Origin: Candidatus Latescibacterota bacterium
GTDB taxonomy: Bacteria; Latescibacterota; CBDEFO01
Length of the DNA: 64,000 nt
NCBI GenBank assembly: GCA_965237525.1
Contig: CBDEFO010000006.1
Span: 256,001 to 320,000 of the forward strand
Direction of reading: 5' to 3'
Both the position numbers and the translations under genes were made by a program. Position 1 is the stretch's first letter; every line of letters begins with the position of its first letter. A model generated the notes under the pieces. That model ran no database searches. It was not told where the DNA came from and was given only the letters and a program-made list of their open reading frames with translations. Positions 14,998 through 52,216 of this stretch are shown piece after piece.

Positions 14998-15273
14998 ATG
15001 CCAAGAAAAGAGAGAGTTACCAAAGTAATTGATGGCGACACTTTTCACACCAACAGAAGAAGAAAACATCCGGTACGACTTGCAAATGTTGATGCTCCGG
15101 AAAAAGGGACGCGTGGAAGTGAAAAAGCGACAAATGACTTGAAAAGATTGATCGATGGACAAGAAGTTACCATCGATAAAGTAGCAACAGATAAATATGG
15201 GAGATCCGTCGCGAACGTGAAGAAGGGAAGAAGGTCAGTAAACAAAGCAATGAACGAAAAATTAAGGAATTAA
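14998..15273 (+). CDS. Thermonuclease (SNase-like) protein
   Basis: VIDGDTF, VRLANVDAPE, DKYGRSVANV motifs; GGAGG RBS; AT-richer than flanks. Confidence 0.85.
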   Translation: MPRKERVTKVIDGDTFHTNRRRKHPVRLANVDAPEKGTRGSEKATNDLKRLIDGQEVTIDKVATDKYGRSVANVKKGRRSVNKAMNEKLRN

Positions 15274-15899
15274 AGGAATCGACTGCTTATAGTGGAACGC
15301 TCGAAAGGGTTTGGATTGACTCCCTATGCTGAAATGCTGACAATCAACGAGCTAATCCTATAGCACACAAAACCTAACAAGAAGCCGGAGCTGACGGTCC
15401 GCCACGTGGGTCAAAAGTTGTGCTCACTGGCTCAGCTTGTGGTAGTGATAACATCCGAACAGTGACAAAGCGCTCTCGTACAGAGTAGAAAGGGAAACGC
15501 AAAAGCTCTGTAGAGCAGTTTGACAGAAAGCGGATCGGTGAAAGATATTACTACCTTGGAGTCGGTTAAAAAGATTTGGGGAGCTTTTGCATAGAACTTT
15601 TTGGAAATTGAAAATGAAATGAAAAGTTTATAGTATAAGCTCCCCAAGCTCCCCAACTGAGAGCAAGCAACAAAATTGTGATTGACATCCTCACGGGAGT
15701 TTTGTATCTTCCTGTGACAAATGTAGGACTGGGTAACCCAGCCCCTGGGGCGAGACAACCTCGCCCCAGCATTGTTTTAGAACACCGTATCGTCCTACGC
15801 AGACCCGCGCGTCTGCCTCCCTCTCTTCAAGAAGCGGGACGATGTGGAGCTCGCGTCCGACCGGCGACCGGCTAGTCGTCAGGACGCAACCTGGTCCAC

Positions 15900-17435: not shown

Positions 17436-17541
17436 GCGGGCAAGAGGATGCCGGCGGAGAGCGGTTTCGCTTAGACGGTGGAGCCGTGTGATCTCCCCTC
17501 CCCCGCTCTTTCATCCCTAACATTTCAGAAAGGAGTGCCGT

Positions 17542-18897
17542 ATGAAAGTATGGACATTCGTTCACAACCCCCTTGAACACTGGCTGGACGATTATGAACG
17601 CACTTTCGATGCCTGGCACGATGGGGGCATGAGGGGCATTGTCATTGGCCGCATGTTTTTTCAACAGGACGACGGTACACAAATTCCGACGTACCGCGCC
17701 GATCCGGCCATCTATGAATCGTTCGGCGTTGCCCCGCCTCCGGAGGCCCCGACAGATCCGGAAAAGGAACGACGTTTTCATGCGATGCTGGACGATGCCG
17801 CTGCTCGCGGCTGGCACATTATGGTCTTTGGCGGCTCCCTGGCGCAGGGGAGCAGTCTTCCTGTGGAACGGGATCCCTTTGGCGCCATCAGCGACGCTGC
17901 CTCGGCGCTGGACTTGGTCAAGGCCTACCCGCAGGTGCACGGCAAGATCATAGACGGTCCGGGAGAAAACCATTACGAGTTGGCCTTTCATCACGGCGGC
18001 CAGGTATTCGAGATACGCGAGCACGAACAGGCGATCTTCGAACAGATGGGCCTGGATACCGCCCGTATGGAGCGCGGTATAGCGCATCTGCAGAAGCGCT
18101 TTCACAATCTGACGCCGGACCTCGTACGCTATCACGCTCCGGGAGGTATGCTGGCCGCGCTCACCCTGTTCGACATCAACGAAGACGTCATCTACTGGCT
18201 GCGCGCACGACAGGAGAAGACCATAGCCTCCATGGCTGCCGTCCGCGCCGAGCTTGACAAACTGGACCGGAAGGTCGAAATCGGAGGCATCCCGCGTACA
18301 GCCGCCTTCTCTTCGCTCACCGGACAGAACTATCAGCGTCTGGGGCCTATCCTGGACTATATCTTCCCGAAGCACTATTTCTGGCATCGGGGCTTCGACG
18401 GGATGTACGGGACAATCTCGCGCTGGGTGAAGAGGCTCGCCAAATGGAATTCTACACTGACAGAAGAAGACTGCTTTACGGTTGTGAAGGCCTTTCTTGG
18501 TATCGAGCTGCCGGGCATTGGCTCGCTGACGGATATGGACGAGATAGGATTTCCTGAGGAATTCTTCACAGAAACCGTCTACAGCGAAACGAAGCGGGCG
18601 TTGGAGGCTGTTGGAGATGACGATAAAGTTATCTGCTGGGTGGACACCGGACGCGCTTCTCACGCGGGTGACCAGATGCCGCCGACAGACCTTTACCGTA
18701 TTCTACAGGCCTGCCAGCGGGCGGGGCTGAAGCGTTTTGTGCACCACTCGTCGGTCAACATGGGCGCTGCGGAATGGCGCGTTATCTCCAGGGTGTGTGG
18801 AAATCTGTGGGACGAGGACCCTGACGGCTACTGGCCGACAGGCACCGAAAAGCCCACTATGTTTAGCGGAGGTCTCACACCACCTCCTGAAGACTGA
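17542..18897 (+). CDS. Hypothetical protein, copy 1 of a near-identical pair
   Basis: 451 aa; AAAGGAG RBS; about 16 aa differences from 19690-21045. Confidence 0.85.
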   Translation: MKVWTFVHNPLEHWLDDYERTFDAWHDGGMRGIVIGRMFFQQDDGTQIPTYRADPAIYESFGVAPPPEAPTDPEKERRFHAMLDDAAARGWHIMVFGGSLAQGSSLPVERDPFGAISDAASALDLVKAYPQVHGKIIDGPGENHYELAFHHGGQVFEIREHEQAIFEQMGLDTARMERGIAHLQKRFHNLTPDLVRYHAPGGMLAALTLFDINEDVIYWLRARQEKTIASMAAVRAELDKLDRKVEIGGIPRTAAFSSLTGQNYQRLGPILDYIFPKHYFWHRGFDGMYGTISRWVKRLAKWNSTLTEEDCFTVVKAFLGIELPGIGSLTDMDEIGFPEEFFTETVYSETKRALEAVGDDDKVICWVDTGRASHAGDQMPPTDLYRILQACQRAGLKRFVHHSSVNMGAAEWRVISRVCGNLWDEDPDGYWPTGTEKPTMFSGGLTPPPED

Positions 18898-19031
18898 TGG
18901 AGAGATGAATATACACGTCGCCGAATGGAGTAAGGCGGGTACCGCCCCATAACATCCTGCTGATAACGAGCTGCTTCATCCTTTAGCGTGTCACTCTATC
19001 CTGATGGCAAACTGACAGAGAAAGCTTGCAG

Positions 19032-19382: not shown

Positions 19383-19689
19383 ATCAACCATGTACCGGAG
19401 GTGCTACCCTCCTTCGGGATCGAGTACACTCCGGCCAGCAATTACGGTACCAACTTCGGTTTCTTCCTGGACGCCGGCGGTGAAGACGATTACTTCGAGT
19501 TCAGTGCGGACGGGGAGCACAAAGAGGCTGAAATCTGGCGGAACGATCGCGTCTGGCAGCAGCCCGCTCCGGACGACGAGCGTTTCGGCTACAATTCGCG
19601 CGGGATCGGCATGGATGTAGAGTGGGGGCCGTTCCCGAATTCCACCGCTTCGAGCAGAGGCAAATTGACATTTCAGAAAGGACCGCCAT

Positions 19690-21045
19690 ATGAAAGTATG
19701 GAAATCCGTAGACAACCCGTTTGAACACTGGTTGGACGATTATAAGCGCACTTTCGATGCCTGGCACGACGGGGGCATGAGGGGCATTATCATTGGGCGC
19801 ATGTTTTTCCAACAGGACGACGGTACACAAATTCCGACGTACCGCGCCGATCCGGCCATCTATGAATCGTTCGGCGTTGCCCCGCCTCCGGAGGCCCCGA
19901 CAGATCCGGAAAAGGAACGACGTTTTCATGCGATGCTGGACGATGCCGCTGCTCGCGGCTGGCACATTATGGTCTTTGGCGGCTCCCTGCCGCAGGGGAG
20001 CAGTCTTCCTGTGGAACGGGATCCCTTTGGCGCCATCAGCGACGCTGCCTCGGCGCTGGACCTGGTCAAGGCCTACCCGCAGGTGCACGGCAAGATCATA
20101 GACGGTCCGGGAGAAAACCATTACGAGCTGGCCTTTCATCACGGCGGCCAGGTGTTCGAGATACGCGAACACGAACAGGCGATCTTCGAACAGATGGGCC
20201 TGGATACCGCCCGTATGGAGCGCGGTATAGCGCATCTGCGGAAGCGCTTTCACAATCTGACGCCGGACCTCGTACGCTATCACGCCCCGGGAGGTATGCT
20301 GGCCGCGCTCACCCTGTTCGACATCAACGAAGACGTCATCTACTGGCTGCGCGCACGACAGGAGAAGACCATAGCGTCCATGGCTGCCGTCCGCGCCGAG
20401 CTTGACAAACTGGACCGGAAGGTCGAAATCGGAGGCATCCCGCGCTCAGCCGCCTTCGCTTCGCTCACCGGACAGAACTATCAGCGTCTGGGGCCTATCC
20501 TGGACTACATCTTCCCGAAGCACTATTTCTGGCACCGGGGCTACGACGGGATGTACGGGACAATCTCGCGCTGGGTGAAGAGGCTCGCCCGGTGGAACCC
20601 TGTCCTGACCGAAGAAGACTGCTTTACGGTTGTGAAGGCCTTTCTTGGTATCGAGCTGCCGGGCATTGGCTCGCTGACGGATATGGACGAGATAGGATTT
20701 CCTGAGGAATTCTTCACAGAAACCGTCTACAGCGAAACGAAGCGGGCATTGGAGGCTGTTGGCGATGACGATAAAGTGATCTGCTGGGTGGACACCGGAC
20801 GTGCTTCTCACGCCGGCGACCAGATGCCGCCGACAGACCTTTACCGTATTCTACAGGCCTGCCAGCGGGCGGGGCTGAAGCGTTTTGTACACCACTCGAC
20901 GGTCAACATGGGCGCTGCGGAATGGCGCGTTATCTCCAGGGTGTGTGGAAATCTGTGGGACGAGGACCCCGACGGCTACTGGCCGACAGGTACCCAAAAG
21001 CCCACTATGTTTAGCGGAGGTCTCACACCACCTCCTGAAGACTGA
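19690..21045 (+). CDS. Hypothetical protein, copy 2 of a near-identical pair
   Basis: 451 aa; identity extends to tgatggagagatgaatatacacgtc downstream of both copies. Confidence 0.85.
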   Translation: MKVWKSVDNPFEHWLDDYKRTFDAWHDGGMRGIIIGRMFFQQDDGTQIPTYRADPAIYESFGVAPPPEAPTDPEKERRFHAMLDDAAARGWHIMVFGGSLPQGSSLPVERDPFGAISDAASALDLVKAYPQVHGKIIDGPGENHYELAFHHGGQVFEIREHEQAIFEQMGLDTARMERGIAHLRKRFHNLTPDLVRYHAPGGMLAALTLFDINEDVIYWLRARQEKTIASMAAVRAELDKLDRKVEIGGIPRSAAFASLTGQNYQRLGPILDYIFPKHYFWHRGYDGMYGTISRWVKRLARWNPVLTEEDCFTVVKAFLGIELPGIGSLTDMDEIGFPEEFFTETVYSETKRALEAVGDDDKVICWVDTGRASHAGDQMPPTDLYRILQACQRAGLKRFVHHSTVNMGAAEWRVISRVCGNLWDEDPDGYWPTGTQKPTMFSGGLTPPPED

Positions 21046-21150
21046 TGGAGAGATGAATATACACGTCAGGGCTGGGATTCCACAGGTGCAGCGCGCCCGT
21101 GTCCGCGCCTGCGGAACCTATTGTCTCCTGCATAAGGATGGAGGCTAAAG

Positions 21151-22200
21151 ATGAAGAGCGGCAAGGTGCGAATCGGCGTAATCGGCGCGGGATGGTGGGC
21201 AAGTTCTAACCACATTCCTGTCTTGAAAAAGCGGGACGATGTGGAGCTCGCAGCGGTCTGCCGGATCGGCATGTCAGAGTTAAAGCGGCTTCAGGATGAG
21301 TTCGGGTTCGAATATATAACTGAGGACTATCAGAAGCTCCTGTCAGAGGTCCAATTAGATGGCGTGGTAGTCGCTTCGCCGCATACCCTGCACTATGAAC
21401 ACGCCACGGCGGCGCTTGAGGCCGGCTGCCACGTGATGTGCGAAAAGCCATTAACGACAAATGCCGACGACGCTCGCGATCTTGTAGCGAGGGCTAAAGA
21501 TAAGAACCTGACCCTTATGATCCCGCACGGCTGGCACTATAAACCCTATATCCAGGAGGCCAAGCGGCGGATGGACGCCGGAGTAGTCGGCAAGATCGAG
21601 GCGATCCATTGCCAGCAGTCATCGCCTATAGTTTCTCTCCTTCGCGGCCAAGAGTTCATCCACGGCGAGATGTTCTTCAAACCCGATAAGGAGACATGGG
21701 CAGATCCAAAGGTCGCAGGCGGAGGCTACGGCCTGGCGAATCTGACGCACGCCCTCGGGATGCTTTTCCTTCTGACTGATCTGAAGCCGAGCAACGTCTA
21801 TGCCCGGACCACCAGCCCCGGCGCAGAGGTGGAGATCAATATTGCCATAAGCGCGGAGTTCGAAGTCGGCGCTATCGGCACGATCTTTGGAACGGCCTTT
21901 GTTCCGGATCAGGCAAGATTCCAGGTGGATGTGCGCGTCTATGGGACAGAGGGGATGCTTATGGTGGACATGGATCGCGCCCGGATGGATGTTCAGAGGT
22001 TCGACGGCGATGACTTTCTGATGGAACTGGACCTGGCCGCCGGAGTCTACAGTTGCGAAGGTCCGCCCAACAATTTTGTGGATCTAATCCTGGGAGTGGA
22101 TGACACCTGCTGGGCGCCCGGCGAGGTGGGTATGAGAGCGATCGAGGTTCTGGACGCTGCCTATCGGTCGGCGCAGTCAGGACGGCCAGAATCCGTGTAG
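21151..22200 (+). CDS. Gfo/Idh/MocA family oxidoreductase
   Basis: IGVIGAGWWA Rossmann motif, VMCEKP, GGGYG; GGAGG RBS. Confidence 0.92.
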   Translation: MKSGKVRIGVIGAGWWASSNHIPVLKKRDDVELAAVCRIGMSELKRLQDEFGFEYITEDYQKLLSEVQLDGVVVASPHTLHYEHATAALEAGCHVMCEKPLTTNADDARDLVARAKDKNLTLMIPHGWHYKPYIQEAKRRMDAGVVGKIEAIHCQQSSPIVSLLRGQEFIHGEMFFKPDKETWADPKVAGGGYGLANLTHALGMLFLLTDLKPSNVYARTTSPGAEVEINIAISAEFEVGAIGTIFGTAFVPDQARFQVDVRVYGTEGMLMVDMDRARMDVQRFDGDDFLMELDLAAGVYSCEGPPNNFVDLILGVDDTCWAPGEVGMRAIEVLDAAYRSAQSGRPESV

Positions 22201-22317
22201 CTAAAACAGGCAGTCACAGGAAATACAAAGAAACAGCGTGTGAATAAAACTGTCTATTCTTATGCTCAGATAAGGAATGAAATTCCCTCGTTCTGATTCC
22301 CTGCTCGTCTACCTAGC
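21999..22317 (+). repeat. Junction repeat copy A (oxidoreductase 3' end + intergenic + YtoQ-gene 5' end)
   Basis: Native 3' end of 21151-22200 followed by a decayed first ~11 codons of the YtoQ gene; homologous to 25044-25360, 26653-27112 and 32227-32545. Confidence 0.92.
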
Positions 22318-22418
22318 GAGTGATAAGTCCTGCTGACAATCTGTAGGAAATGATGTTGAATTGAGGTTTTATACAGGCTATATATAATTGCTACAAAACT
22401 TATGATAATTAGGCCACA
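22318..22418 (+). repeat. ~100-bp AT-rich promoter-like module (second copy 27162-27262)
   Basis: gagt...aagtcctRctgacaatYtgtaggaaatgRtgttgaattg...cttatgataattaggccaca in both; this copy has TTGAAT-17 bp-TATATA. Confidence 0.8.
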
Positions 22419-22540
22419 ACAGAATGATATTTTTAATATTACACGTGTTGTCATAATATTTCAGTGGGGTCTTATATAGCTCAAATAGCTGTATATAGGT
22501 CCTTAGCATAGAAAACTGTATAAGCCCTAGTTCGGCGCCC

Positions 22541-24382
22541 TTGAACGACAACCATTCGAATTCGGTCCGCGAGCCGGATAGAATCACACTGCTTATGAAC
22601 AAACCAACTAAGGTACAAAGTCATGTAAGCCATCGGAAGGGCATGGGCGTGCACTACACGCCAACGCTTCTGGCGCGGTTCGTTGCAGAACGACTCGTAA
22701 CATGCGTGCAACACAGTGGCGGTGGTCCCCTTCGGATTCTGGATCCTGCTTGTGGTGATGGTGCCCTTCTTGAGGCGTTGCTGGCATCTTTGCTGGATGC
22801 CGGCCGGCTCCGTGGCTGTGAGGTCATCGGCGTGGAAGCCGACGAGCGGGTGCTACCAGAAACAGAATCACGGCTTGAGAAGTTCACGCAAGTTCGCTGT
22901 CGGCTGATTCCGGCGGATTTTCTAGACCTTGTTACCAGGCGCCGAGGCCAAGCGGAGCTTTGGGAAACCGACACATCGGATCCTGGCTTCGAGGATGCCT
23001 TCGATATCGTCATTGCTAATCCCCCCTATGTGCGTACTCAAGTCCTGGGTACTGAGAAGGCTCAGCGACTGGCGGTGCGATATGGCCTGACTGGACGCGT
23101 TGATCTCTATCACGTCTTCCTCGTGGCCGCGACGGAGACGATACGGCCCGGGGGGTACATCGGCATCATCACTTCTAATCGGTTTCTTTCGACTCTCGCT
23201 GGAGCGGCGATCCGGGCCTTCTTGGCACACAACTATGAGATCGAGGAGGTGGTCGACTTGGGGGACACCAAGCTTTTTGAGGCTGCCGTGCTTCCTGCAA
23301 TCTTTGTTGGGTGTCGTCGCGAAGACCGTTCCGGACGACACATCCGAACGCAGCCCCGCTTTCTGAAGATCTATTCAGAACCAGATCGGCGTGGTGATAG
23401 CTGCCAGAAGCTGTGGCCCGCCGACGACATCCTGGGAATCCTGAGACAAGGCCAGGCGGGATTGTACCAGACCCCCGAGGGTATATTCAGGCTGACCACG
23501 GGCGATCTGCTTCCCGGTAACGACCCCAAAGGAGTTTGGTCGCTGACAACCCGCAAGGAGGCTGCTTGGCTCTCTCGCGTTCGTAAAGCTGCGTGGAGGC
23601 TCTTCAAAGACATTGCCGTGGTGCGAGTGGGCATAAAGACAACAGCCAACGATGTGTTCATCCGACGCGATTGGGATGTGCTCCCACAAGAAGTGAGACC
23701 GGAGGCGGAACTCCTACGTCCACTATTGAGGCACGAGGACGCGCGGCACTGGTCCATTCCGGACGGAGTGCAACCGACGTCGTGGCGCGTCCTGTATCCG
23801 CACGAGGTGCTTAACGGCATCAGAAGGCCGATTGATCTGAGCCGTTACCCACGCGCCCGGGCATACCTGGAGCAGAATAGGGAGCGGCTGGAGAAACGAC
23901 ACTACGTGATTGAGGCCGGGAGGCAGTGGTACGAGATCTGGGTGCCGCAGGACCCTGAAGCCTGGGGCACTCCAAAGATCGTCTTTCCTGACATTAGTCC
24001 AGAACCGCGTTTCTACTTGGATCATGGCGAATGCCTCGTCGATGGTGACTGTTATTGGATAACCCTACGTCCGGGAACAGCGCCGAGTGTGTTGTATCTC
24101 TTGCTGGCACTCGCCAACTCGTCACTGATGACGCGATTCCATGATCTCGCATTCAATAACAAGTTGTATTCCGGCAGGCGCCGCTACATCACTCAGTACG
24201 TCGGAGAGTACCCGTGTCCTGATCCAGCATTACCGGCTTCTAAAGAAGCTGATCGCTTTGGTGAAGGAAATCGTTCAAGAAACCAAGAGTGGTGCGAATC
24301 AAGCAAAGGTTCAGCTAGCTTACTGGAGAGCTCGAGATACTCGTCCAAGAAGCGTTCGGAATCAATCCTGATGAGCGAGTGA
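22541..24382 (+). CDS. Type II N6-adenine DNA methyltransferase (gamma class, TaqI/Eco57I-like); possible frameshift near the C-terminus
   Basis: GVHYTP, motif I ILDPACGDG, motif IV IANPPY, KIVFPDIS segment; a more protein-like C-terminus (KKLIALVKEIVQ) appears in another frame after ~24240. Confidence 0.88.
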   Translation: MNDNHSNSVREPDRITLLMNKPTKVQSHVSHRKGMGVHYTPTLLARFVAERLVTCVQHSGGGPLRILDPACGDGALLEALLASLLDAGRLRGCEVIGVEADERVLPETESRLEKFTQVRCRLIPADFLDLVTRRRGQAELWETDTSDPGFEDAFDIVIANPPYVRTQVLGTEKAQRLAVRYGLTGRVDLYHVFLVAATETIRPGGYIGIITSNRFLSTLAGAAIRAFLAHNYEIEEVVDLGDTKLFEAAVLPAIFVGCRREDRSGRHIRTQPRFLKIYSEPDRRGDSCQKLWPADDILGILRQGQAGLYQTPEGIFRLTTGDLLPGNDPKGVWSLTTRKEAAWLSRVRKAAWRLFKDIAVVRVGIKTTANDVFIRRDWDVLPQEVRPEAELLRPLLRHEDARHWSIPDGVQPTSWRVLYPHEVLNGIRRPIDLSRYPRARAYLEQNRERLEKRHYVIEAGRQWYEIWVPQDPEAWGTPKIVFPDISPEPRFYLDHGECLVDGDCYWITLRPGTAPSVLYLLLALANSSLMTRFHDLAFNNKLYSGRRRYITQYVGEYPCPDPALPASKEADRFGEGNRSRNQEWCESSKGSASLLESSRYSSKKRSESILMSE

Positions 24383-24383
24383 C

Positions 24384-25007
24384 ATGACGACTCGACGTTC
24401 CTCCATCTCGAAGTCAACTATTGCCAAGAGACAACGCATCCACGACTTGGACTTGGCCGACGGTGATCCTCTCGCAAACGCACCTGCCGACCCGAGCCTA
24501 CTTTTCACCCTCGAGGAGCTTGCCACGCTACTGAAGCCACTGATGAGGATGGACGCTCCAAGAGATGATGGCAATCGAATTCTTGAAGTGCGTCCAAAGG
24601 GGCACTGATTTGAGTTCGAGGTTTCCAAGCATCTTGGATACCATTACCCGCCAGGCTCTGGTCTTTTTCCAGACATTCGTCACCAACTCCTGGAAGTGAA
24701 GCACCATACTGGCAGGTCCGTTACGGTTGACTTCGGTCGACACCATCCGGGATCAGAAGATGTGCCCGACGCGCGGTGGAACGAAAAGGCCCAAGCACGA
24801 ATCTGTGACATTCGGTACTTGATAACGCTAGCTCCTCCTCCTGAGTTCCAAGTTGTGACCATGGTTCTTGCAACTGGTGCAGATATCAATTCCATCTTTG
24901 GCGTGTCACCCACACAGACGATCAAGTATCAGATGGGTATCTCGAAGCGATGGCGAGACGAGCACGTCGGCAAGATCCTTGTGTCTGGGCGCGAGTTCCG
25001 TGGATAG
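24384..25007 (+). pseudogene. Putative cognate PD-(D/E)xK restriction endonuclease split by an in-frame TGA
   Basis: 24384-24608 and 24696-25007 share a frame; read-through gives KGH*FEFEVSK...FPDIRHQLLEVK; directly follows the MTase. Confidence 0.7.
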
Positions 25008-25043
25008 GCAACGCTTCAGATGGGGAGATGGGGCGCCGAACCC

Positions 25044-25360
25044 GTTCGAAGGCAATGCTTTTTGATGGAATTGGACCCGGCAGCCGGAGTCTACGGTTGC
25101 GAAGACCCGCCCAACAATTTTGTGGATCTCATCTTAGGGGTGGACGACACCTGCTGGGTGCCCGGCGAGGTGGGTATGAGAGCGATCGAGGTTCTGGACG
25201 CTGCCTATGCTCGGCGCAGTCTGGACGGTCAGAATCCGTCTAAATAAAGCAGGCAGTTACAGGAAATACAAAGAAATAAAGTGTGAATAAAACTGACTAT
25301 TCTTATATTCAGATAAGAACTGAAAATGGCCCGTTCTGATTCCCTGCTCGTCTATCTGGC
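25044..25360 (+). repeat. Junction repeat copy B
   Basis: Encodes MELDPAAGVYGCEDPPNNFVDLILGVDDTCWVPGEVGMRAIEVLDAAY, then the intergenic block and ATGGCCCGTTCTGATTCCCTGCTCGTCTATCTGGC. Confidence 0.92.
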
Positions 25361-25520
25361 CGCACCTGATCCGCGACGTTGGCGATCTGGATAGCCACGG
25401 GCCTCACATATTCCCGGCGACTAATTGCGTGACACCGCCGGGCCAGGAACACACAGCACACCCTGACCGCGCTGCTGCGTCAGTCGATCTGCAGCCGACT
25501 GCGCGACGCCACCCAAGGGG

Positions 25521-25990
25521 ATGCTAGCCATGATCGATTTCAGCCAGGATCGGCCTCCGGAGACGACCGACGAGCGCATCAAAGCGCTGCGCTCGCTGGC
25601 CCGTCTGGAGAAAGAAATGGACTATCTTGACGAGCGCGTTTCGGAAGCGGAACTGCCGCCGCCGCAGGTTGAGGGGGAGCGCTATGAGGACGACGTGCCC
25701 GATACGTTGGACCTGACCGTCCACGCGCAATACGCCATCAACGCTTACACGCGAATGCTCGACCCGGCGATGGACTACCGGTTCCACGGTAACGCGCGTT
25801 TCCTGAGCCGTCCGCCGCGCCTGTCCCTCAGTCCCTCCTTCGAGTGCACCGCCAAGCATCTCGAGTCCCTGCCGCTGATGCGCCTGATGAGCGGCAGCAC
25901 GTTCAACATCGACATCGATAACAAGTTCATGCAGAGCCGCTTGCATCTGACGGCGGCCGACGGATTCGGCTACTGCCCGGGGAGCAAAGC
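25521..25990 (+). pseudogene. Truncated hypothetical protein fragment
   Basis: GC-rich ORF (YEDDVPDTLDL...KHLESLPLMRLMSGS) cut off at an attC-like half site. Confidence 0.5.
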
Positions 25991-26031
25991 AGGTGATCCA
26001 TACGTTAGCCGGACTTTCTCTGGAGGCGCGG

Positions 26032-26658
26032 ATGACGACAGAGAGACTAATTAAACTAGCCGGCGTGGCCCTGATCGGTAGTGGGATCCTCGCCACGATT
26101 GGGTTCTCGGTCCACCCGCATGACTCATCCGGATCGAATCACGTCATGTGGCTCTTTGGCCACATCCTGATCGTCCTTGGCTTCCTTATGAACTTCCTGG
26201 GCTTGGTTGGGCTGTACAGCGCAACTGCCAAGAACGTGGGTGCCTTTGGCTTCGGGGGTTTCCTTGTCGCCTGCGTGAGCCTAGTCCTCTACCTCGGCAA
26301 ATTGTACTGGTCAGGTTTCATCTATCCGCTCGTCATAGCGCAGCACCCGGAGTTCATTTCTGAGTATGGCTTCAACCCCGGCTCGGATCCAGCGGATCCG
26401 GTTGTGAGAATGGTGTTCTATCTAGGCCCGATTCTTTTCGCTGTGGGCTATGCCGTCTTCGGACTGGCTCTTCTAAAGGCTCGCACGTTCCCGGCGATGC
26501 CTGTTTGCCTTGTAGTCGCGGGTTCCTTGCTGCTTGGGGTTTGGCCGTTGCTCCCTGCTGTGATTCAGCACCTTAGTGTCTTCGTATCGTTGGTGTACAC
26601 CTTAGGGATCGCCTGGCTGGGATACCTCCTGGCAGCGGGAAGGTACAGTCTGAGTTGA
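26032..26658 (+). CDS. Integral membrane protein (about 6 TM), cassette-like
   Basis: Multiple hydrophobic helices; preceded by a GTTAGCC core-site-like motif and GGAGG RBS. Confidence 0.75.
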   Translation: MTTERLIKLAGVALIGSGILATIGFSVHPHDSSGSNHVMWLFGHILIVLGFLMNFLGLVGLYSATAKNVGAFGFGGFLVACVSLVLYLGKLYWSGFIYPLVIAQHPEFISEYGFNPGSDPADPVVRMVFYLGPILFAVGYAVFGLALLKARTFPAMPVCLVVAGSLLLGVWPLLPAVIQHLSVFVSLVYTLGIAWLGYLLAAGRYSLS

Positions 26659-27112
26659 AGGAGGCCGACCAATAACTTCGTGGAACTTATCCTGGGAAAT
26701 GATGACACCTGCTGGGCGCCCGGCGAGGCGGGTATGAGAGCGATCGAGGTTCTGGACGCTGCGTACCGCTCGGCACTGTCTGGACGGCCAGAACCCGTCT
26801 AACTAAAGCAGGCAGTCACAGGAAATACAAAGAAATAAAGTGTGCATAAAACTGTCTTTCTTATATTGAGATAAGAACTGAAAATGGCTCGTTCTGATTC
26901 CCTGCTCGTCTACCTGCCCGGGCACATCCACGGCGGGTGGCGCGAGCTATGAAGACTGTGTGATGAGCGCAACCTTCCGGTCATCTTCAAAGGCCCCTCT
27001 TAGGACAACGCCCCAAGCGACGCATAGGCGTCCAAATCGGGAGTATTACCGAAGCCTATGTCGGATCCAGAGGCTTCCCGTCCAGAGTCAGGAATGACCT
27101 GGGTGGAAGGAT
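26653..27112 (+). repeat. Junction repeat copy C, with a longer decayed YtoQ-gene fragment
   Basis: Matches the oxidoreductase 3' end, the intergenic block and about 75 codons of the YtoQ gene with stops and indels. Confidence 0.92.
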
Positions 27113-27265
27113 ATCAAAACAACAATGATTTATACTCACGTTCTAAACCGTGGTGGAAAGGGAGTAGTAAGTCCTACTGACAATTTGTAGGAAATGGTGT
27201 TGAATTGGGGTTTTATACAGTCTGTATATAATCTCTACAAGACTTATGATAATTAGGCCACAGCG

Positions 27266-27709
27266 GACCTTGCCGCTGCCGATGGCGATCAGTCAATGGT
27301 CGTTCATGACGCTGCAAAACAAGCTGATCAAGATCGAGGGGAAAGTGGTCCGCCACCTTCGCTACGTCACGTTCCAGATGACGGAGGTGCCCGTAGCGCG
27401 AGCTATTCAGGGCGATTCTTGAGAGGATTCAACAGTCGGGGTCGCCGCTGCTGTGGGGTTACCGGGATGAGGGGTAACGTTCCCGGTACGATATCGATGT
27501 GTAAACAACCGCGTAGCGGTCTGTCCGGATATGTACTCAGGAGCCTTGTAACAGCAAGAACACCAAGGGATCACGGGTCATTATGGCTAGCTGTCGATTG
27601 GACAGCGGATGCCTTGAAGCATTCGCGGATCCGTGGTCAAATGCTAGCATCCTGATATCTAGCAACGTGAGGAGCGCGACTTGCAAACCGGCTATCTGGG
27701 AAATCCCGG
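27266..27709 (+). mobile_element. IS1380-family remnant (transposase C-terminus and putative right end)
   Basis: WSFMTLQNKLIKIEGKVVRHLRYVTFQMTEV resembles IS1380 C-termini; tatctgggaaatcccgg at 27693-27709 looks like an IS end. Confidence 0.65.
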
Positions 27710-27724
27710 AACTATATCTGCGAA

Positions 27725-29054
27725 ATGCAAAGGAGGCCGACGGTAGATTTATTGACAAACAAGAATATCGACGAGGTTCAAATGCCTGAGAATGTCGCCT
27801 TGTCCATGAAAGTCACCATGTTCCGCCTGAAGTGCGCCCAGATGGGATGCACTTACGATTACGCCCATTTCGCGTTCGGGGGCTCCCCCTTTCCCGTCCC
27901 GGACGGCGTGCAAGAAGCGTTGAGGCAGCATAGCGGCGCAGGAGAATATCTGCCGCCGGTCGGGATCGAGCCTCTCAGAAGGCAGATTTCCAAATTCTGG
28001 GGGAATCATTTCAATCTCGACATCGATCCGAACCGTGTTGTCGTCATGCCCGGGTCGAAGCAGGCGATCTACCAGATCCTCGCGTTGTTCCAGGGGCCTA
28101 TGATCCTGCCGCAACCTTCCTGGGTGGGTTACCTGCCGATCGCCCAGCTTTTGAACAAGGAGATCGTTAGGCTTCCCACGCCTGCGGACAACGGCTACCG
28201 GATCACCGCCGAACAGATTGGCCGATGTGGCCAAGAAGATGGATGCTCCCCAGAGCATCCTGATTTTGAACTCCCCGCACAATCCCACCGGTGCCGTTTA
28301 CACGGACGGCGAGCTACGGGCATTCGTCGACGTTTGTCGCAAATACAACGTCCTCGTGCTCTCCGATGAGATCTACTCGCTCCTCGCATACGACGCCGAC
28401 GGCTTCACGAGCGTGGCGAAGCTCTACCCGGAGGGGACGTTCGTCACCAATGGAGTCTCGAAGCACGCCGGCGCCGGCGGCTATCGGCTAGGGTTCGCGA
28501 TTCTGCCCGACAACTCCACCGAAGAGCAGGTCTTGAACTTTCAGAAGGTGGGTGCAGCCATCTACACCAATGCGAGTGCTCCGATTCAGTTCGCGGCCAT
28601 CGCCGCTTTCGGCCTCGACGAAGAGATGACGCGCTACATCGAGGCCCAGCGTGACATACATCGCATCATGACAACGGATTTGGCCCGGCGATTTCGGGAG
28701 CTCGAAGGCGTCGATGTCACGACACCCCAAGGGTCCTTCTACTTTTTCGCGGACTTCGAAGGCCTGCGCGACAAGCTGGCCCCGTACGGCATCCAGACGG
28801 GTGTGGAGCTGGGAGACCTTCTCTACGGTCACCCGCACCACATTGCCATGGTGGCAGGGGAGTATTTGATGATGCCGCCCGAGAGCCTCACGTTCCGCGT
28901 CGCAAGTGTCGACTACGACGGGAACCAGGCGATGAAGGCCTACCTCGAGGAGCCACCGAAGGGGGCAGGCGACGAACGGGCGTTCGTGGAGAGTAACGCA
29001 CATCGCCTTCTGATGGGAGTGGAGCGCCTCCGCCGGTGGATCGAATCTCTGTGA
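27725..29054 (+). pseudogene. Class I/II PLP-dependent aminotransferase, frameshifted near 28220
   Basis: PGSKQAIY...PSWVGY in the first frame; LNSPHNPTG, SDEIY, SKHAGAGGYRLG in the second. Confidence 0.8.
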
Positions 29055-29129
29055 GAAAAGACGTTACGAAGAAAGAGCTTGCAATGACGTAGGTATCGCG
29101 TCATTCAGTCCTTTGGATCGAGGGTTATG

Positions 29130-29335
29130 GGCCCGTGCGAGGACCACGCCCGAAGCGACGCCATAGGCGTCGAAATAGCGGGCATTACCGAAGCCGATGT
29201 CGTATCCTCTGGCTTCCCGTCCAGAGGCAGCAGCTGCTCGCGGCGGATGCCCTATTGGTGCCGTCATGGTTACAAATGGTGAAATCATCGCTCGGGACGG
29301 GAACAGGATAGTTGAGTCGAAGGATCCTACGGCAC
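29130..29335 (+). pseudogene. Internal YtoQ-gene fragment (copy D, 29130-29226) fused to a TadA-like deaminase fragment
   Basis: gaggaccacgcccgaagcgacgccataggc matches the YtoQ gene; then EAAAARGGCPIGAVMVTNGEIIARDGNR...DPTA, lacking the HAE motif. Confidence 0.7.
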
Positions 29336-29511
29336 AGCAGCTCCGTTTCACTCCGGCGCCGTCGTGTATGGCCGAGGACCCGGACGGACTGTCGCTGCGC
29401 ACTATTCACTACAATAGACGGCACCCGTCTCAAGACTCGCTATCGTGGAATCATTCACTATATTTGTCACTGACGCGCGGACCGAACACTCCCAAGGAAA
29501 GGAGTAGAGCT

Positions 29512-30249
29512 ATGTCAGGAATCGAACCCGCATCCCGATTGACCCGCTTGAGCGGTGCCAGGATCGGACTTCTGGATCCGGGAAAGCGTACTTCAGCAGC
29601 CGTTCTCGAGGCGGTAGGGGAACGGCTCGGAGGAGAGTATGACGCGAATGTGGTCGGACCGTGGAGGAAGTCATCTCCCTACCGGGTCTGCTCGAAGAAG
29701 CTTCTGGAGGAGATCGTTCACCGGTGCGATGGGCTTGTGATGGGAGTCGTGGACTGATGCGGCGCCAGTTCGTGCAGTTTGCACGATATGCTGGAGTTCG
29801 AGTTGAGAGGCATCCCGACCGCCTATATCACGGCCTCTGGAAGGGTTCCAATGATCGAACGCGATGGTGATGGGTTCAGGCTGTCGCATGCGACGGGGAG
29901 CTATCTAGTAGAGGGATGGGAGGACTCCGGCCAACAGTCTGACGGCGTGCATCGCAGGCTGGTCCACTTCGGGGTACACCGCAGGATGCGGATGAGCGGG
30001 GTGAAGGAGGGAGACACGGTCCGCTACGGCAGCAGGGAGCTGCGATGGGAATATCCTCGAAAGGAGCTGGAGTCCAGAGTCAGGCCCGCCGGAGCCGGCG
30101 CCTGGTCGAGCACCTTTGACGGCGTTGCAGGCTACAGGAGTATCGAACTGCGGGCGTACGCTGCACCCGTGGAAGGCGATGAATTCAATGAAAGTGTGGC
30201 GGAGGCTGTCCCGCAGTTGGTGTCGATTCTGACGGGCGGGAAGGCGTGA
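29512..30249 (+). CDS. Putative UGSC-family selenoprotein (Sec at TGA 29755-29757)
   Basis: AAAGGAG RBS; the two ORFs are in frame across one TGA: ..VVD-U-CGASSCSLHDMLEFELRGIPT; hairpin 29770-29786. Confidence 0.72.
29770..29786 (+). promoter_or_regulatory. Putative bacterial SECIS hairpin
   Basis: TCGTGCA-GTT-TGCACGA perfect 7-bp stem starting 12 nt after the UGA, loop beginning GU. Confidence 0.6.
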
Positions 30250-30255
30250 GGTCAC

Positions 30256-30823
30256 TTGGTCGATGCAACGATTAGCCAACACGGAAGAGTCGACATCCTG
30301 GTAAACAATGCGGGGTTTCAGCATGTCTCGCCGCTTGAGGATTTTCCAGAAGAAAAATGGGATCAAATGTTGAGAGTGATGCTGACAGCGCCCTTTCTGC
30401 TGACCAAATATGTGTGGCCCTACATGAAAACTCAAGAATGGGGTCGTGTTGTGAACATCGCCTCAATACATGAAATGGTTGCTTCCCAGAACAAGGTTGG
30501 ATGTATCTCAGTCAAACCATGGTCTAATAGGATTGACCCGTACGGCCGCCCTTGAAGGTGGGGCTCATGGGATAACCGTAAATGCCCCTTGTCCAGCCTA
30601 TGTACGGACTCCCTTAGTTGAAAACCAAATCGCCGATCAGGCCAGAATACACCAGATTCGTGAAGAAGAGGTAGTGGCGGACATCATGCTCAAATCAGCC
30701 GCCATAAAGAAACTAATAGAACCAAAGGAAGTTGCCGACCTTGTGCTCTATCTTTGTTCTGAAAAAGGCGTATCGATAACTGGAGCATGTTGGACGATTG
30801 ATTGTGGCTGGACAGCACAATAA
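30256..30823 (+). pseudogene. 3-hydroxybutyrate dehydrogenase-like SDR, 5'-truncated and frameshifted
   Basis: [20 protein letters not shown], then [14 protein letters not shown]...YVRTPLV in another frame; Rossmann N-terminus missing. Confidence 0.8.
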
Positions 30824-30843
30824 CAGAGTACCCTCAACAAGCG

Positions 30844-30904
30844 GGCTAACAAACCGGATGCAGGGGACGGCAAATAGACGCGCCGCCGAGGCTAGTCGTT
30901 AGAA
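30844..30904 (+). other. attC-like integron recombination site (degenerate)
   Basis: GGCTAAC...ccggatgcaggggacggcaaatag...GTTAGAA, about 60 bp, between a stop codon and the next gene. Confidence 0.55.
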
Positions 30905-30936
30905 TCCTGAACGGACGATGAAAGGAACATGGAGTC

Positions 30937-32163
30937 ATGAGTCATTCACGGAAAGAGATCGCCCGGGTTGCTCCAAAGGCGTACGAATACGTCAAGGAGG
31001 TCCTGGACTTCGGCTTCCACAATGCCACTTCGGTAGGAATGACCGCCCGACTGGAGCGCGAGTTCGCGCAACGCTTCGGGCAGACCTACGGCATAGCTCA
31101 CTGCAACGGCACCGCCACGATGCAGAGCGCTCTCATGGCTGCCGGTGTGGGAGTCGGCGATGAGGTAATCGTGCCGGCCTTCACGGTGTTCTCCACCCCG
31201 GCGGCAGTGCTGCACTGTAATGCGGTTCCGGTCGTTGTGGATGTAGACGCAGATACGTGGACCGTGAGCGCGGTCGCTATTCACAAGCAGATTACCCCGC
31301 GAACGCGGGCGATTATTCCAGTTTCCATCTGCGGATTGCCGGCGGATCTCGACCCAATCATGAGATTAGCCGAGGAGCACGACCTTGTGGTTATAGAAGA
31401 CAATACCCAGTGCTTATTGGGCCAATACAAAGGGCGTGTTGCCGGATCTATCGGCCATTTCGCCAGCTTCAGCTTTCAGTCTTCCAAGACGCTCACCTGC
31501 GGTGACGGTGGCATTCTGATCTGTTCAGACGATTCGCTGGCCCTGGCAACCAGAAAGGCCGCCACCCTGGGATTCAAGGATCTCACCTTGAAACCGGGCG
31601 ATAACGCAGTCGCGGAACGCCTGCGGTGCCAGCCGGATTATCAGCGCCACGACACCGTAGGGTGGAACCAGCGCCTGCCTGAAATAGCGTCTGCGGTGGC
31701 TCTGGCTGAACTTGAGCGAATCAATGAACTGGCGGAGATGCGCACGCACAGCGCCATGGCGTTTGACCAGGTCGTGCAAGACTGCGAGTGGATTGTGCCG
31801 CAAGGAACTCCTGAAGAATATGTCAACGCCTACTGGAATTACGCGGCCCGAATCACGCGCGACGATATCGTCTGGGCAGATTTCCTGGCGACGTTCATCC
31901 AGCTTGGAGGCGACGGTTTCTACGGTGCCTATCAGCCCGCTCATCTTGAACCGGTTTTTGCAAGTCTGAACAGGGCAGTGGTTGAGAAGCCGGATCGCTA
32001 TCCCCAGTTCGCGGGCCGGTTGCCAGGCTATGAGCGTGGAACTTGCCCGGTCTGGGAAGAGATCCAGCCATGGATTATCATGCTGAAGACCAATTACTTT
32101 GACACTGTTGAAGCCGACCAGCAGGCGGAGATTCTTGCGGAAGCTATTAAGCGATTCGATTGA
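30937..32163 (+). CDS. DegT/DnrJ/EryC1/StrS aminotransferase
   Basis: NGTATM, GDEVIVP, IEDNTQ, FSFQSSKTLTCGDGG. Confidence 0.9.
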   Translation: MSHSRKEIARVAPKAYEYVKEVLDFGFHNATSVGMTARLEREFAQRFGQTYGIAHCNGTATMQSALMAAGVGVGDEVIVPAFTVFSTPAAVLHCNAVPVVVDVDADTWTVSAVAIHKQITPRTRAIIPVSICGLPADLDPIMRLAEEHDLVVIEDNTQCLLGQYKGRVAGSIGHFASFSFQSSKTLTCGDGGILICSDDSLALATRKAATLGFKDLTLKPGDNAVAERLRCQPDYQRHDTVGWNQRLPEIASAVALAELERINELAEMRTHSAMAFDQVVQDCEWIVPQGTPEEYVNAYWNYAARITRDDIVWADFLATFIQLGGDGFYGAYQPAHLEPVFASLNRAVVEKPDRYPQFAGRLPGYERGTCPVWEEIQPWIIMLKTNYFDTVEADQQAEILAEAIKRFD

Positions 32164-32226
32164 GACTACGGATTCTATCCACTGCGTCGAGCGGGCACCA
32201 CGGATGCGGGGCCGCTCACGCATGAC

Positions 32227-32545
32227 GTTCGGGGGCGATCACTTTCTGATGGAATCGGACCCAGGAGCCGGAGTCTACAGTTGCGAAGATCCGCCCAATA
32301 ACTTCGTGGATCTAATCCTGGGCGTGAATGACATCTGCTGGACACCCGGCGAGGTCGGTATAAGAGCAATCGAGGTTCTGGACGCTGCCTATCGCTCGGA
32401 GCAGTCTGGACGGTCAGAATTCGTCTAACAAAAGCAGGCAGTCACAGGAACTACAAAGAAATAAAGTGTGGATAAAGCTGTCTCTTCTTATACTCAGAAA
32501 GGAATGAAAATGGCTCGTTCTGATTCACTACTTGTCTACCTAGCT
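32227..32545 (+). repeat. Junction repeat copy E, leading into the intact YtoQ-family gene
   Basis: Encodes FLMESDPGAGVYSCEDPPNNFVDLILG...IEVLDAAYRSEQSGRSEFV* followed by the same intergenic block. Confidence 0.92.
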
Positions 32546-32998
32546 GGCCACATCCACGGCGGCTGGCGCGAGCGTGTACGTCAACTCTGTGAAGAGCGCA
32601 ACCTTCCGGTCATCTTCAAAGGTCCGTCTGAGGACCACGCCCGAAGCGACGCCATAGGTGTGGAAATCCAGGGTATTACCGAAGACAATGTCGGATCCTC
32701 CAAGTACTTCTCCAGAGTCCAAGACGACCTCGGCGGAAGGATCAACGACCTGCGCACCGGTATCTGGATCTCCAAATGCGACGTCCTGATCGCCTTCTTT
32801 GACGAAGAGCAGAAAGGCTTGCGTCAGTGGAACACCGCCAGCGACATCGCAGAAGCCGCCCGCCACGGTAAGCCCATTATTGTAGTTCACGGCCCCGGGT
32901 TCCAACACTCCCTGAAAGAAGTGGACGGCCGTGCCGACGTGATCGTTGAAACCCTCGAACAGGCTGTGGAAGTCTTTGCGTACATCTGTGAGGAATAA
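32510..32998 (+). CDS. YtoQ family protein (nucleoside deoxyribosyltransferase-like fold)
   Basis: VYLAGHIHGGWRE, DHARSD, QWN, HSLKEVD motifs; AGAAAGGA RBS. Confidence 0.8.
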   Translation: MARSDSLLVYLAGHIHGGWRERVRQLCEERNLPVIFKGPSEDHARSDAIGVEIQGITEDNVGSSKYFSRVQDDLGGRINDLRTGIWISKCDVLIAFFDEEQKGLRQWNTASDIAEAARHGKPIIVVHGPGFQHSLKEVDGRADVIVETLEQAVEVFAYICEE

Positions 32999-33118
32999 GA
33001 CAAATAGTCTTGTCACAGGCAGTGACGAGGTACAACCTATGTTCCGCTCACTGGCTTATCTCGTACCGCTGAAGAAGCATCTGAATCCTGATCAACTGCA
33101 CCAAGAGTAACCTTCCTA

Positions 33119-33544
33119 CTATTTCTCTCCCTTGGACCGCAGGGCATCTACAGAATACCGATCATCTTTAGAAGTCGTAAGCGCAAAGGCCGTTATCAGG
33201 ACATATATGGCATTGCGGGCCACAACCGAAGGGTCCCCCTGAACGACCATTCCGAACACAAGTAGTACGCTCAGAACTCCTATTACAACGAGGGCCTTGC
33301 GGGTAAATAAGCCGATTATGAGCAGCGCTCCGCCTATTGCCTCTACGAAGGGAAGCGCATAGACAAAGGGATAGAGCAGAACAGAAGGAAGCCACGTCTG
33401 GCTGAAATTTTTGAGCATTCCCTCTGCGTATCCGCTGTAGTCGGGGAATTTGCCTATACCGAAGAAGAGGAACACGACCCCAAGAGCAAGCCGCAAAAGC
33501 AGTGTGGCAAGGCTATTATCAGATCTGCTGCGGTCTTCGTCCAT
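33119..33544 (-). CDS. DoxX family membrane protein
   Basis: LLLRLALGVVFLFFGIGK...E..GG.LLIIGLFTR...YSVD. Confidence 0.88.
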   Translation of the reverse strand: MDEDRSRSDNSLATLLLRLALGVVFLFFGIGKFPDYSGYAEGMLKNFSQTWLPSVLLYPFVYALPFVEAIGGALLIIGLFTRKALVVIGVLSVLLVFGMVVQGDPSVVARNAIYVLITAFALTTSKDDRYSVDALRSKGEK

Positions 33545-33562
33545 TCTGTTCTCCTTTGTTTC

Positions 33563-33903
33563 TTAAACTGGCTGAAAAGTGACGATCACTAAAGAACCGA
33601 TAACCAGGAATACAAAACCCAGAGTGTAGATAAGAGTCAGCGTTAAGACTCTCCAGCTTTTCGCATGGCCATAATCGTCAATCACTGTTCTCAAGCCGTT
33701 CAACCCGTGCAGAAGAGGTCTTGAGTGTAGCGACCCGCCACGAAATCGTAATTGATCTCGTCCACGTTATGGATAATGTGCATTGCGGCTAAATATCAAA
33801 GGGCCAAGAATAAGAGTAGAACTCCTGAAACTGTCATAAAAAACCACGTGTAGAGTTCAAATCCACCCGTCGGCCTCGGTATTGAAATCCCGACAGCGTT
33901 CAT
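33563..33903 (-). pseudogene. sdhD: Succinate dehydrogenase hydrophobic anchor subunit pseudogene
   Basis: GFELYTWFFMTVSGVLLLFLAL*...INYDFVAGR, then a deletion/frameshift, then LHGLNGLRTVIDDY. Confidence 0.75.
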
Positions 33904-33921
33904 CTCGGACGTCTCCTTATC

Positions 33922-34269
33922 TTACAGGATCGGCATAAGCATAACGATAGCCGCAGGAACAAAGATGATGACAAAGATCCCCGCAACTGCGTAGAACATC
34001 TGTCTTTGAAACTTGGTAGATTCTGTCCAGAAGTCTATGATTATAATGTGGATGCCGTTTAAGGCGTGGTAGAGCACGGCTCCCGCAAGCAAAACTTCGC
34101 CCACACGGAACACCGGCTTCGTATAAAGGGCAACGAACCTGTTGTAGACCTCAAGCCCCCATGCTATTGGCATCGTATCTCAAATATGGATCAGCAGAAA
34201 GAGTAGAATCCCATGCCCCGATATGCGATGAAGTATCCACGACCACATTCCTTCCCCTCCCCTGTACAT
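33922..34269 (-). pseudogene. sdhC: Succinate dehydrogenase cytochrome b556 subunit pseudogene
   Basis: MYRGGEGMWSWILHRISG...IHI*DT with an in-frame TGA at 34180-34182; YHALNGI..IIIDFW. Confidence 0.8.
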
Positions 34270-34339
34270 ATCCCTCCTCCTTTCAAATCAGGCGCTGACT
34301 CCGTGCGGGTCGCCGACTCTGGAATCAATTTCAAAAGAC

Positions 34340-34378
34340 AAAAAGTGCCTCACATAGTCCAGCACAATGTGAGGCACT
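34340..34378 (-). terminator. Rho-independent terminator after mdh
   Basis: agtgcctcacat/atgtgaggcact 12-bp stem followed by a T tract on the minus strand. Confidence 0.75.
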
Positions 34379-34436
34379 CAAACAGCTAGACAGCAAACGG
34401 GGCATTCCTGCTCCTGCCCTACTACTGTCTACTTAC

Positions 34437-35360
34437 TTATACGTCCAGCTTGCCCATGTTAGTCTTCACTGCTCCAGCCGACTTGTGGAGCGCTTCCTTC
34501 TCCTCTTTAGTCAGCCCAATTTCAATAATCTCTTCGACGCCATTTTTGCCCAACTTCACAGGAACGCCTACATAGACATCATTCAGTCCATATTCTCCCG
34601 TCAGCCAGGCGGCGCAGGGCAATATGCGCTTCTTATTCTTTACAATAGCTTCGACCATCTGAACTGTGGCTGAAGACGGGGCGTAGTATGCGCTTCCTGC
34701 CTTGAGGTAGTTTACTATCTCGGCGCCGCCATCTCTCGTCCTCTGGACCAGCCTGTCTATCGTAGGTTGAGACATCAACTCGGGGAGGGGTATTCCTGCG
34801 ACAGTTGAGTACCTCGGAAGAGGAACCATAGAATCTCCGTGCCCCCCCAACACACAGGCGGTCACATCCTTTACAGAGACGTCCAACTCTTCGGCTATAA
34901 ACAATCTAAAGCGCGCAGTGTCCAGAATGCCCGACTGTCCCATAACCTTTCTCGGCTCGAATCCTGTGACTTTGAGGGCAACATAAGTCATCACGTCCAG
35001 GGGATTGCTCACCACGATAACTATAGAATCGGGAGCGTTCTTGGCTATTTCCTGGCTCACCGACTCAACAATATCCGCGTTCATAGTCAGAAGGTCGTCT
35101 CTGCTCATGCCGGGTTTTCTCGGCAAGCCGGCCGTGACTACAACCACGTCCGACCCTTTGATATCGTCGTAACTGTTCGTGCCGACTATCTTTACATCGA
35201 ATCCCTCGACAGGGGATGACTGAGCCAGGTCCAATGCCTTTCCTATCGGCATACCTTCGATCACGTCGAACAGGATCACTTCATTTGAAAGCTCTTTTTG
35301 GGCTATCCACTGGGCTGTAGAGGCACCCACCTGTCCTGCGCCTATAACACTGATCTTCAC
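34437..35360 (-). CDS. mdh: Malate dehydrogenase (LDH-like)
   Basis: [41 protein letters not shown]. Confidence 0.96.
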
Positions 35361-52200: not shown

Positions 52201-52216
52201 TCTACTGTTTACTTAT

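Follow-up and report, generated by a model that had tools for sequence, protein, structure and literature searches.

An integron-derived array with repeated host-gene tails and integrase-gene remnants in a Latescibacterota genome

The oxidoreductase-ytoQ locus

We analyzed a stretch of 64,000 nucleotides (nt) from a Candidatus Latescibacterota bacterium (assembly GCA_965237525.1, contig CBDEFO010000006.1, positions 256,001 to 320,000; hereafter the window), in which the 3' end of an oxidoreductase gene, the adjoining intergenic DNA and the start of the ytoQ gene recur between unrelated cargo genes. The genome that holds the window (G000) comprises 4.58 Mb in 8 contigs and is 96.6% complete; its sister species G001 belongs to the same genus and is ~95% identical. 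The features of the locus are listed below by window position and strand. The term intI denotes an integron-integrase gene and IntI its product, attC the recombination site of a cassette, attI that of the integron platform and attG a genomic target site; P0006 is a protein annotated as an integron integrase of Latescibacterota.

21151-22200 (+): host target gene, a Gfo/Idh/MocA oxidoreductase of 349 amino acids (aa), intact; the orthologue in G001 is intact as well
21999-22008 (+): putative attG, with the G/TT crossover at 21999/22000 and CRGM at +6 to +9
21999-22317 (+): copy A, the oxidoreductase tail, intergenic DNA and first ~13 ytoQ codons (self-BLAST)
22315-22346 (+): intI tail 1, its last 8 codons exactly as in P0006; overlaps copy A by 3 letters
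22347-22532 (+): attI-like segment, crossover 22530/22531
22531-25044 (+): restriction-modification (R-M) cassette, with a type II methyltransferase (MTase; 22541-24382), a restriction endonuclease (24384-25007, in-frame TGA at 24606) and a collapsed attC
25044-25364 (+): copy B, beginning at an attC crossover, frameshifted; a complete attC precedes its G001 orthologue
25362-25384 (+): attC-like right arm (G at 25378), identified by eye and unscored by the attC model, followed by a gene fragment of no recognized family (25521 to ~25980)
25984-26658 (+): membrane-protein cassette (26032-26658), preceded by the right arm of an attC (G at 26004) that is still complete in G001 (34.5 bits)
26653-27112 (+): copy C, without its first ~55-62 letters, reaching ~230 nt into ytoQ, decayed
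27107-27262 (+): intI tail 2 (27 codons, 89% identical to P0006) and left part of an attI-like segment; overlaps copy C by 6 letters
27257-27712 (+): remnant of an IS1380-like element within the second attI-like segment, which it interrupts; limits approximate (match 27297-27394, 74%)
27725-29054 (+): class I/II aminotransferase, split near 28215, where sequencing runs X2 and X4 have one letter fewer
29127-29232 (+): fragment D, an internal ytoQ piece nearest to the decayed copy C (81%)
29233-30823 (+): deaminase scrap, UGSC-family open reading frame (ORF; 29512-30249, in-frame TGA) and SDR scrap (95.6% identical to C7:462589-463204)
30843-30904 (+): weak attC-like site, degraded, with its G at 30898, at the start of the DegT cassette
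30899-32233 (+): DegT aminotransferase cassette (gene 30937-32163) with attC 32170-32233
32227-32998 (+): copy E, beginning at an attC crossover and running into intact ytoQ (32510-32998)

A preliminary description, made from the letters of the window, had reported these copies, and self-BLAST recovered them with limits of 21996/21999-22317 (A), 25043-25362 (B), 26665-27112 (C), 29130-29230 (D) and 32224-32544 (E). It had also described both host genes as preserved, as we find for the oxidoreductase (21151-22200) and ytoQ (32510-32998), and had noted that copies B and E start near the same GTTCG; both begin exactly at the G of this motif in the oxidoreductase gene (21999). Copies A, B, C and E are 82.7-88.3% identical to one another. 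Copy C begins ~55-62 letters after the motif and is fused to the end of the membrane-protein gene, so that its original start can only be inferred. The right ends vary, with ~40 nt of ytoQ in A, ~45 in B, ~230 in C and the complete gene in E; they are nested in the order E > C > B > A, of which the order of C, B and A would arise by chance in 1 of 6 cases. At its right end copy A shares 3 letters with the next segment and copy C shares 6.

All cargo ORFs named in the list lie on the + strand, and self-BLAST found no cargo gene repeated inside the array. The earlier cargo labels hold for the type II MTase and restriction endonuclease, the IS1380-like scrap, the aminotransferase and the UGSC, SDR and DegT genes; the deaminase match is weak (E 0.002, below the cut-off). 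The TGA of the UGSC ORF stands at codon 82 in a VD-U-CG context, which makes its product a selenoprotein candidate.

Contigs of two studies cover most of the array. Those of run X2 (study P2) extend over 22503-25189, 25179-26759, 26733-27151, 27203-29390 and 30786-35000 with 1-12 differences each, and run X1 (study P1) holds matching pieces with 0 differences. The junctions of the R-M cassette with B, of B with C, of C with the next segment and of DegT through E into ytoQ are bridged in contigs of both studies; none of the listed contigs reaches from one end of the array to the other, and no long piece among them covers 29502-30786. Runs X2 and X4 are one letter shorter at 24242, 24322 and 28215, so the altered C-terminus of the MTase and the split of the aminotransferase may be errors or strain variants.

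The locus in G001 consists of an intact oxidoreductase gene, an attI, a different cassette of 339 aa with a complete attC, copy B, the membrane-protein cassette and a last copy that runs into intact ytoQ; run X6 holds the G001-type allele. The last copy in G001 has its left junction as in C, yet shares 16 minority states with E, which indicates that the block from C to E was gained in G000 or lost in G001 by crossover between copies. A comparison of relatives for other cargo, which the preliminary description had called for, thus shows that G001 and run X6 differ from G000 in the first slot and that G001 is without the C-E block. Since relatives differ in cargo, the data do not support one ancient tandem duplication with subsequent decay, a reading that we rejected. 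An empty oxidoreductase-ytoQ site was not found, with ytoQ matched in only 2 of 41 genomes and a different upstream gene at L026 (70%), the one read of two metagenome loci. Elsewhere in G001, 1.2 Mb from the locus, lies a lone 263-nt oxidoreductase-tail/ytoQ fragment at which no att site was noticed (L009 10566-10828; G001:C1:2298565-2298827); its intergenic part is nearest to copy A (3 differences in 84).

Cassettes, attI-like segments and the target site

For attC sites we built a covariance model of our own instead of using that of IntegronFinder, trained on 12 sites that all lie outside the array locus; it replaced hairpin scans that were noisy or too strict, and 84.8% of its cells are paired, compared with 22-39% in slid controls. 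The top match of the model in the window is 32173-32233 (19.3 bits, E 0.018), which ends on the first letters of copy E. In G001 the model finds two complete attCs on which it was not trained (33 and 34.5 bits, E ~5e-6), and the 33-bit site ends on the first letters of copy B. The R-M cassette begins at the attI crossover 22530/22531, and its R'' (25031-25041), two letters before copy B, is the reverse complement of the cassette start at 11/11 positions (background 0/20000). The ends of the DegT cassette are complementary at 9/10 positions (background 22/20000) and those of the G001 cassette at 8/9 (background 80/20000). The candidate at 30843-30904 received no covariance-model score and folds no better than shuffled sequences, and the aminotransferase and UGSC segments show no recognizable cassette ends.

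Copies A and C are each followed by a dispersed repeat (22315-22532 and, in part, 27107-27262), the left part of which codes for the C-terminal end of an integron integrase. The remnants translated at 22320-22343 and 27107-27187 are identical to P0006 at 8/8 and 24/27 residues, respectively. P0006, one of several full-length relatives of 331-338 aa, passes the TIGR02249 family model (477.6 against a cut-off of 265 bits); full-length cognate integrases are represented by P0001-P0009. The preliminary description had seen no integrase in the array, which is correct for an intact gene and overlooks these C-terminal remnants. All 16 attI-like copies in G000 end at one point, 13 of them with GTT, and unrelated DNA follows most of them; on the left they begin at widely differing positions in the intI tail and the spacer. 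G001 contains 13 matches to the attI-like segment. At L007, L032 and L034, three loci compared between G000 and G001, collinearity extends to the crossover, or at most 10 nt beyond, and the cargo differs from there on. A fixed crossover followed by cargo that differs between species is the behavior expected of attI where the integrase of the integron is oriented toward its cassettes. Such an inverted layout, with intI co-oriented with the cassettes and attI at its 3' end, occurs at L013 and L063. At L063 (2526-2855; G041:C684), intI residues 1-56 are joined in frame to residues 284-338 with loss of the integrase core, and attI, scored attCs and cassettes follow. The AT-rich repeat had also been considered as an attC or an RNA; this was dropped on finding the intI tail and the fixed end, and Rfam was not searched. 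One promoter-like site, at 22361-22388, is at chance level. No RNA sample was listed as carrying the sequence.

In G000 and G001, C-terminal remnants of intI were found and no intact copy (0/2 above the TIGR02249 cut-off), and neither genome has a match to P0006 at E <= 1e-100. An intact intI joined to the window's attI type was found neither in 168 genomes (E <= 1e-100) nor in 5 genomes of family f6; 8 of the 168 carry other integron integrases, and the 9 loci of these that were checked show no attI of this type. Viral contigs yielded no match to the attI motif.

Integron-derived arrays contain a minimum of two attC sites; here the window holds one scored attC, one collapsed attC and two right arms, and G001 two complete sites. 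Complementary R'' and R' sequences, co-oriented genes and a fixed attI crossover with variable cassettes are likewise present. A complete integron has an intact intI beside its attI, which this locus lacks. We therefore class the array as an integron-derived array, a CALIN (attC sites clustered without an integron integrase; PMC4889954), with intI pseudogenes, and not as a complete integron.

Secondary sites of IntI have the consensus GWT, to which hotspots add CRGM at +6 to +9 (as described in 10.1101/2022.09.11.507474). The oxidoreductase site has both GWT and CRGM, a combination shared by 5633 of 314388 genomic GWT sites (1.8%). The left edge of the copies was thus very probably set by IntI through recombination of attC with attG, as judged from the sequence. 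The preliminary description had proposed a capture hotspot; its serial events at one site, regenerated target, site-specific left boundary and recombinase acting in trans agree with our results. Its target of ~320 bp does not, since the right ends vary: read from the boundaries, the target is one G/TT crossover point and not a fixed unit, and the recombinase is identifiable as IntI, whose gene tails lie inside the array.

Differences between the dead oxidoreductase tails are enriched at synonymous sites in several comparisons (11 pairs tested, P values uncorrected): 14.8 of 27 between B and E, against 7.7 expected (P 0.0016), and likewise between B and C (P 0.019) and between copy B of G001 and the last copy there (P 0.0024). 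Differences between C and E are not enriched (P 0.53), and orthologous dead pairs are neutral (P 0.17 and 0.85). The enrichment implies that part of the divergence arose while the tails were still coding, which fits serial displacement of the working tail, perhaps with import from relatives.

The same attI segment is present in 7 of 13 genomes of family f6. In one of them (G011, locus L070), an intact GH20 gene is followed by an intI tail, attI, cassettes, a collapsed attC and a 99-nt, 92% identical copy of the GH20 gene end that starts from G/TT. We surveyed 57 attI-like ends for this signature, 16 from G000, 11 of the 13 matches in G001 and 30 from f6, 13 of the latter with short flanks. In the C7:547595 region of G000, a 260-nt segment occurs twice (L030 5366-5625 and 6671-6930), once directly after an attI and once after an attC-like site, both times from G/TT.

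Origin of the repeated gene tails

We interpret the array as a decayed stack of integron cassettes and intI tails that may well have been built by repeated one-ended captures, a reading to which we give roughly even weight. According to this proposal, IntI would join the attC of an incoming fragment to the G/TT point in the oxidoreductase gene. The donor could equally well have been, or not have been, a linear piece of an inverted-layout integron that carried an intI tail, attI, a cassette and attC; linear single-stranded DNA is described as a substrate for cassette excision (PMC12614218). After a single exchange of the bottom strand, a 3' flap would remain; to the right of the site it would prime on 3-6 matching letters and copy the stretch back to G/TT, thereby duplicating the gene tail. 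Were the repair to proceed to the left, part of the gene would be lost, an outcome that selection would disfavor. With every event at the working copy, which is the leftmost one, older units would move to the right, making E the oldest and A the youngest, and the units would later be remodeled by cassette swapping at attI, insertion sequence (IS) insertion and deletions. The array is likely frozen now, unless an integrase arrives in trans. One-ended capture, which we favor, would need a single step to produce the invariant left edge and the differing right edges, intI tails truncated to different extents, a gene that stays intact and the single unit at L070.

The locus resembles attG insertion, which forms CALINs and their single-attC counterparts (SALINs), in the bottom-strand crossover of attC at a genomic GWT, the CRGM motif to the right and the absence of an integrase at the locus (Loot et al., 10.1101/2022.09.11.507474). 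The outcomes given in that study are plain insertion that disrupts a gene and deletion on excision, and the word "duplication" is absent from its main text; here, in contrast to what is presented there, the gene tail is duplicated, the gene is intact, the inserted DNA brings in a tail of intI together with attI, and one site has served repeatedly. Treponema-type integrons also have an integrase that points toward the cassettes, with one attI per integron in the description of PMC3607928. Unlike these integrons and the CALINs as portrayed in PMC3607928 and PMC4889954, the genomes studied here contain 13-16 attI-like copies each, variably truncated intI tails and host-gene segments among the cassettes. 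Delta-attI cassettes (PMC12901181) share the arrangement of copy A, intI tail and attI, being bounded to the left by attC and to the right by a fragment of attI; the unit as reported there holds a cassette ORF, whereas here the corresponding part is a chromosomal gene tail, continuous with the intact gene at the left end. Off-target outcomes reported for integrons include inversions, deletions, truncated cassettes and cassette duplications (PMC10127599, PMC3518468, PMC8024014). A literature search, in which coverage of subscription journals was incomplete, returned nothing on duplication of host-gene tails at attG or on integrons of Latescibacterota.

In assays in E. coli and V. cholerae, attG insertion breaks genes or deletes DNA. 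The present locus looks like a natural record of one site that was used again and again while the gene survived, and the same footprint is seen at another gene in a second family. More tentatively, the integrases of this clade might drive capture of linear integron fragments at attG that is healed by target duplication, keeping the gene working, seeding attI platforms throughout the genome and moving host DNA into arrays as attC-bounded pieces, which might be a raw step in cassette genesis. If so, this would explain arrays without an integrase inside core genes, a dozen or more attI per genome and chromosomal DNA between attCs, and it would bear on the open question of cassette origin.

Several observations weigh against one-ended capture. 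The flap-repair step is purely a proposal, and the literature search found no paper that shows it. C and D do not start at G/TT, so that a later deletion has to be assumed for both. The synonymous excess between B and E hints at imported alleles instead of copies made in place. Ordering the events by a phylogeny of the copies, as the preliminary description had suggested, did not succeed, since 0 of 5 inner branches are starred in a tree of 8 rows. The junction of A is nested in that of C, with less ytoQ and less intI, which fits duplication of whole units equally well. The L070 site has GTT and is without CRGM. The signature is a minority one, found at 3 distinct loci among the 57 attI-like ends; at one of these, the tRNA/dnaX locus, the repeated piece has a further occurrence behind an attC at C6:77 kb and may hence be integron-borne, which leaves two clear host-gene cases. 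Finally, at an attI island at C6:425 kb in G000, for which G001 has the empty site, only 4 letters overlap and nothing is duplicated. The count of 3 loci among 57 ends also led us to reject the view that attI islands generally carry a target duplication.

Duplication of whole units is a serious, if tentative, alternative. IntI would recombine an attC of the array with the upstream attG, either between sister chromosomes or through an excised circle that carries the gene tail, intI, attI, a cassette and attC. The circle would go back into the same site, through IntI or through homologous (Campbell-type) recombination, perhaps within a related strain, with cargo swapped at attI and the junction shortened by deletions afterwards; the Campbell-type integration of circles raised in the preliminary description thus stays a live rival for how the duplication forms. 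The same fixed left edge is expected, as are the nesting of A's ytoQ/intI junction inside that of C and, from crossover between copies, the C-type junction with E-type states of the last copy in G001. The synonymous enrichment between some dead copies fits donor alleles, and excision outside the insertion point has been reported (10.1101/2022.09.11.507474). The DNA after ytoQ at 33041-33170, which starts from G/TT and includes the 3' end of a DoxX gene, resembles the DNA after attC-like sites at 15417, at C8:50717 in G000 and at L033 in G001; given this likeness to other array ends, the array may once have ended there. Against whole-unit duplication, no cargo gene is repeated within the array, no integron follows the last ytoQ in G000 or G001, and the single unit at L070 takes three steps instead of the one needed for one-ended capture.

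It is improbable that IntI made the attC/oxidoreductase junction once, and that RecA-type amplification and microhomology deletions then copied it, without repeated targeting of the site, while cassettes were exchanged later. The lineage does make many stray duplications without att sites, such as the lone oxidoreductase/ytoQ piece in G001, the window segments 17520-18919 and 19668-21067, and a host-flank copy at the C8 array that does not start at GTT. However, the attCs before B (in G001) and before E differ, each matching its own cassette start, and changing them needs IntI to act again at the junction.

A very improbable source of the repeats is a non-integron recombinase, or a rolling-circle enzyme of the ISCR/IS91 or another HUH type, that recognizes the hairpin. 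Complex class 1 integrons with a repeated 3'-conserved segment arise by a rolling-circle mechanism. They resemble the present array in the repeated flank with different cargo between its copies, and one fixed and one variable end would also fit such a process (PMC4839121); G000 contains three full-length tyrosine recombinase ORFs of 333-393 aa. In contrast to these integrons as depicted in PMC4839121, the repeat boundary here is an IntI crossover and no ISCR is recognized. The boundaries follow integron rules (G/TT and complementary R''/R'), and the array contains intI tails. Among the array ORFs scanned, none was recognized as a rolling-circle transposase, and a genome-wide search for one was not made. 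An assembly chimera of several strains' versions of the locus, to which the missing contig across the array and the three 1-nt differences in X2/X4 might point, is scarcely credible and was rejected, given that most junctions are bridged in two studies, the tandem A-B-C layout occurs independently in G001 and the copies differ by 12-17%.

Other features of the window

Downstream of a ribonucleotide reductase gene, 14836-15460 contains a more diverged oxidoreductase-like tail (14836-14903), a small ORF for an SNase-family nuclease (14995-15270) and a weak attC-like site (15372-15423, E 4.7); most of this segment is absent from G001. Positions 15820-15854 hold 35 nt from the 5' region of the oxidoreductase gene. 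The segments 17520-18919 and 19668-21067 are a tandem duplicate (96%) of a 451-aa gene without a Pfam or NCBIfam match, and G001 has both copies. At the right end of the window, 49277-64000 holds tandem glycosyltransferase/TPR and methyltransferase-like genes, which are 66-85% alike and recur with a period of ~1.9 kb, with an IS481-like transposase inserted at 50908-52098.

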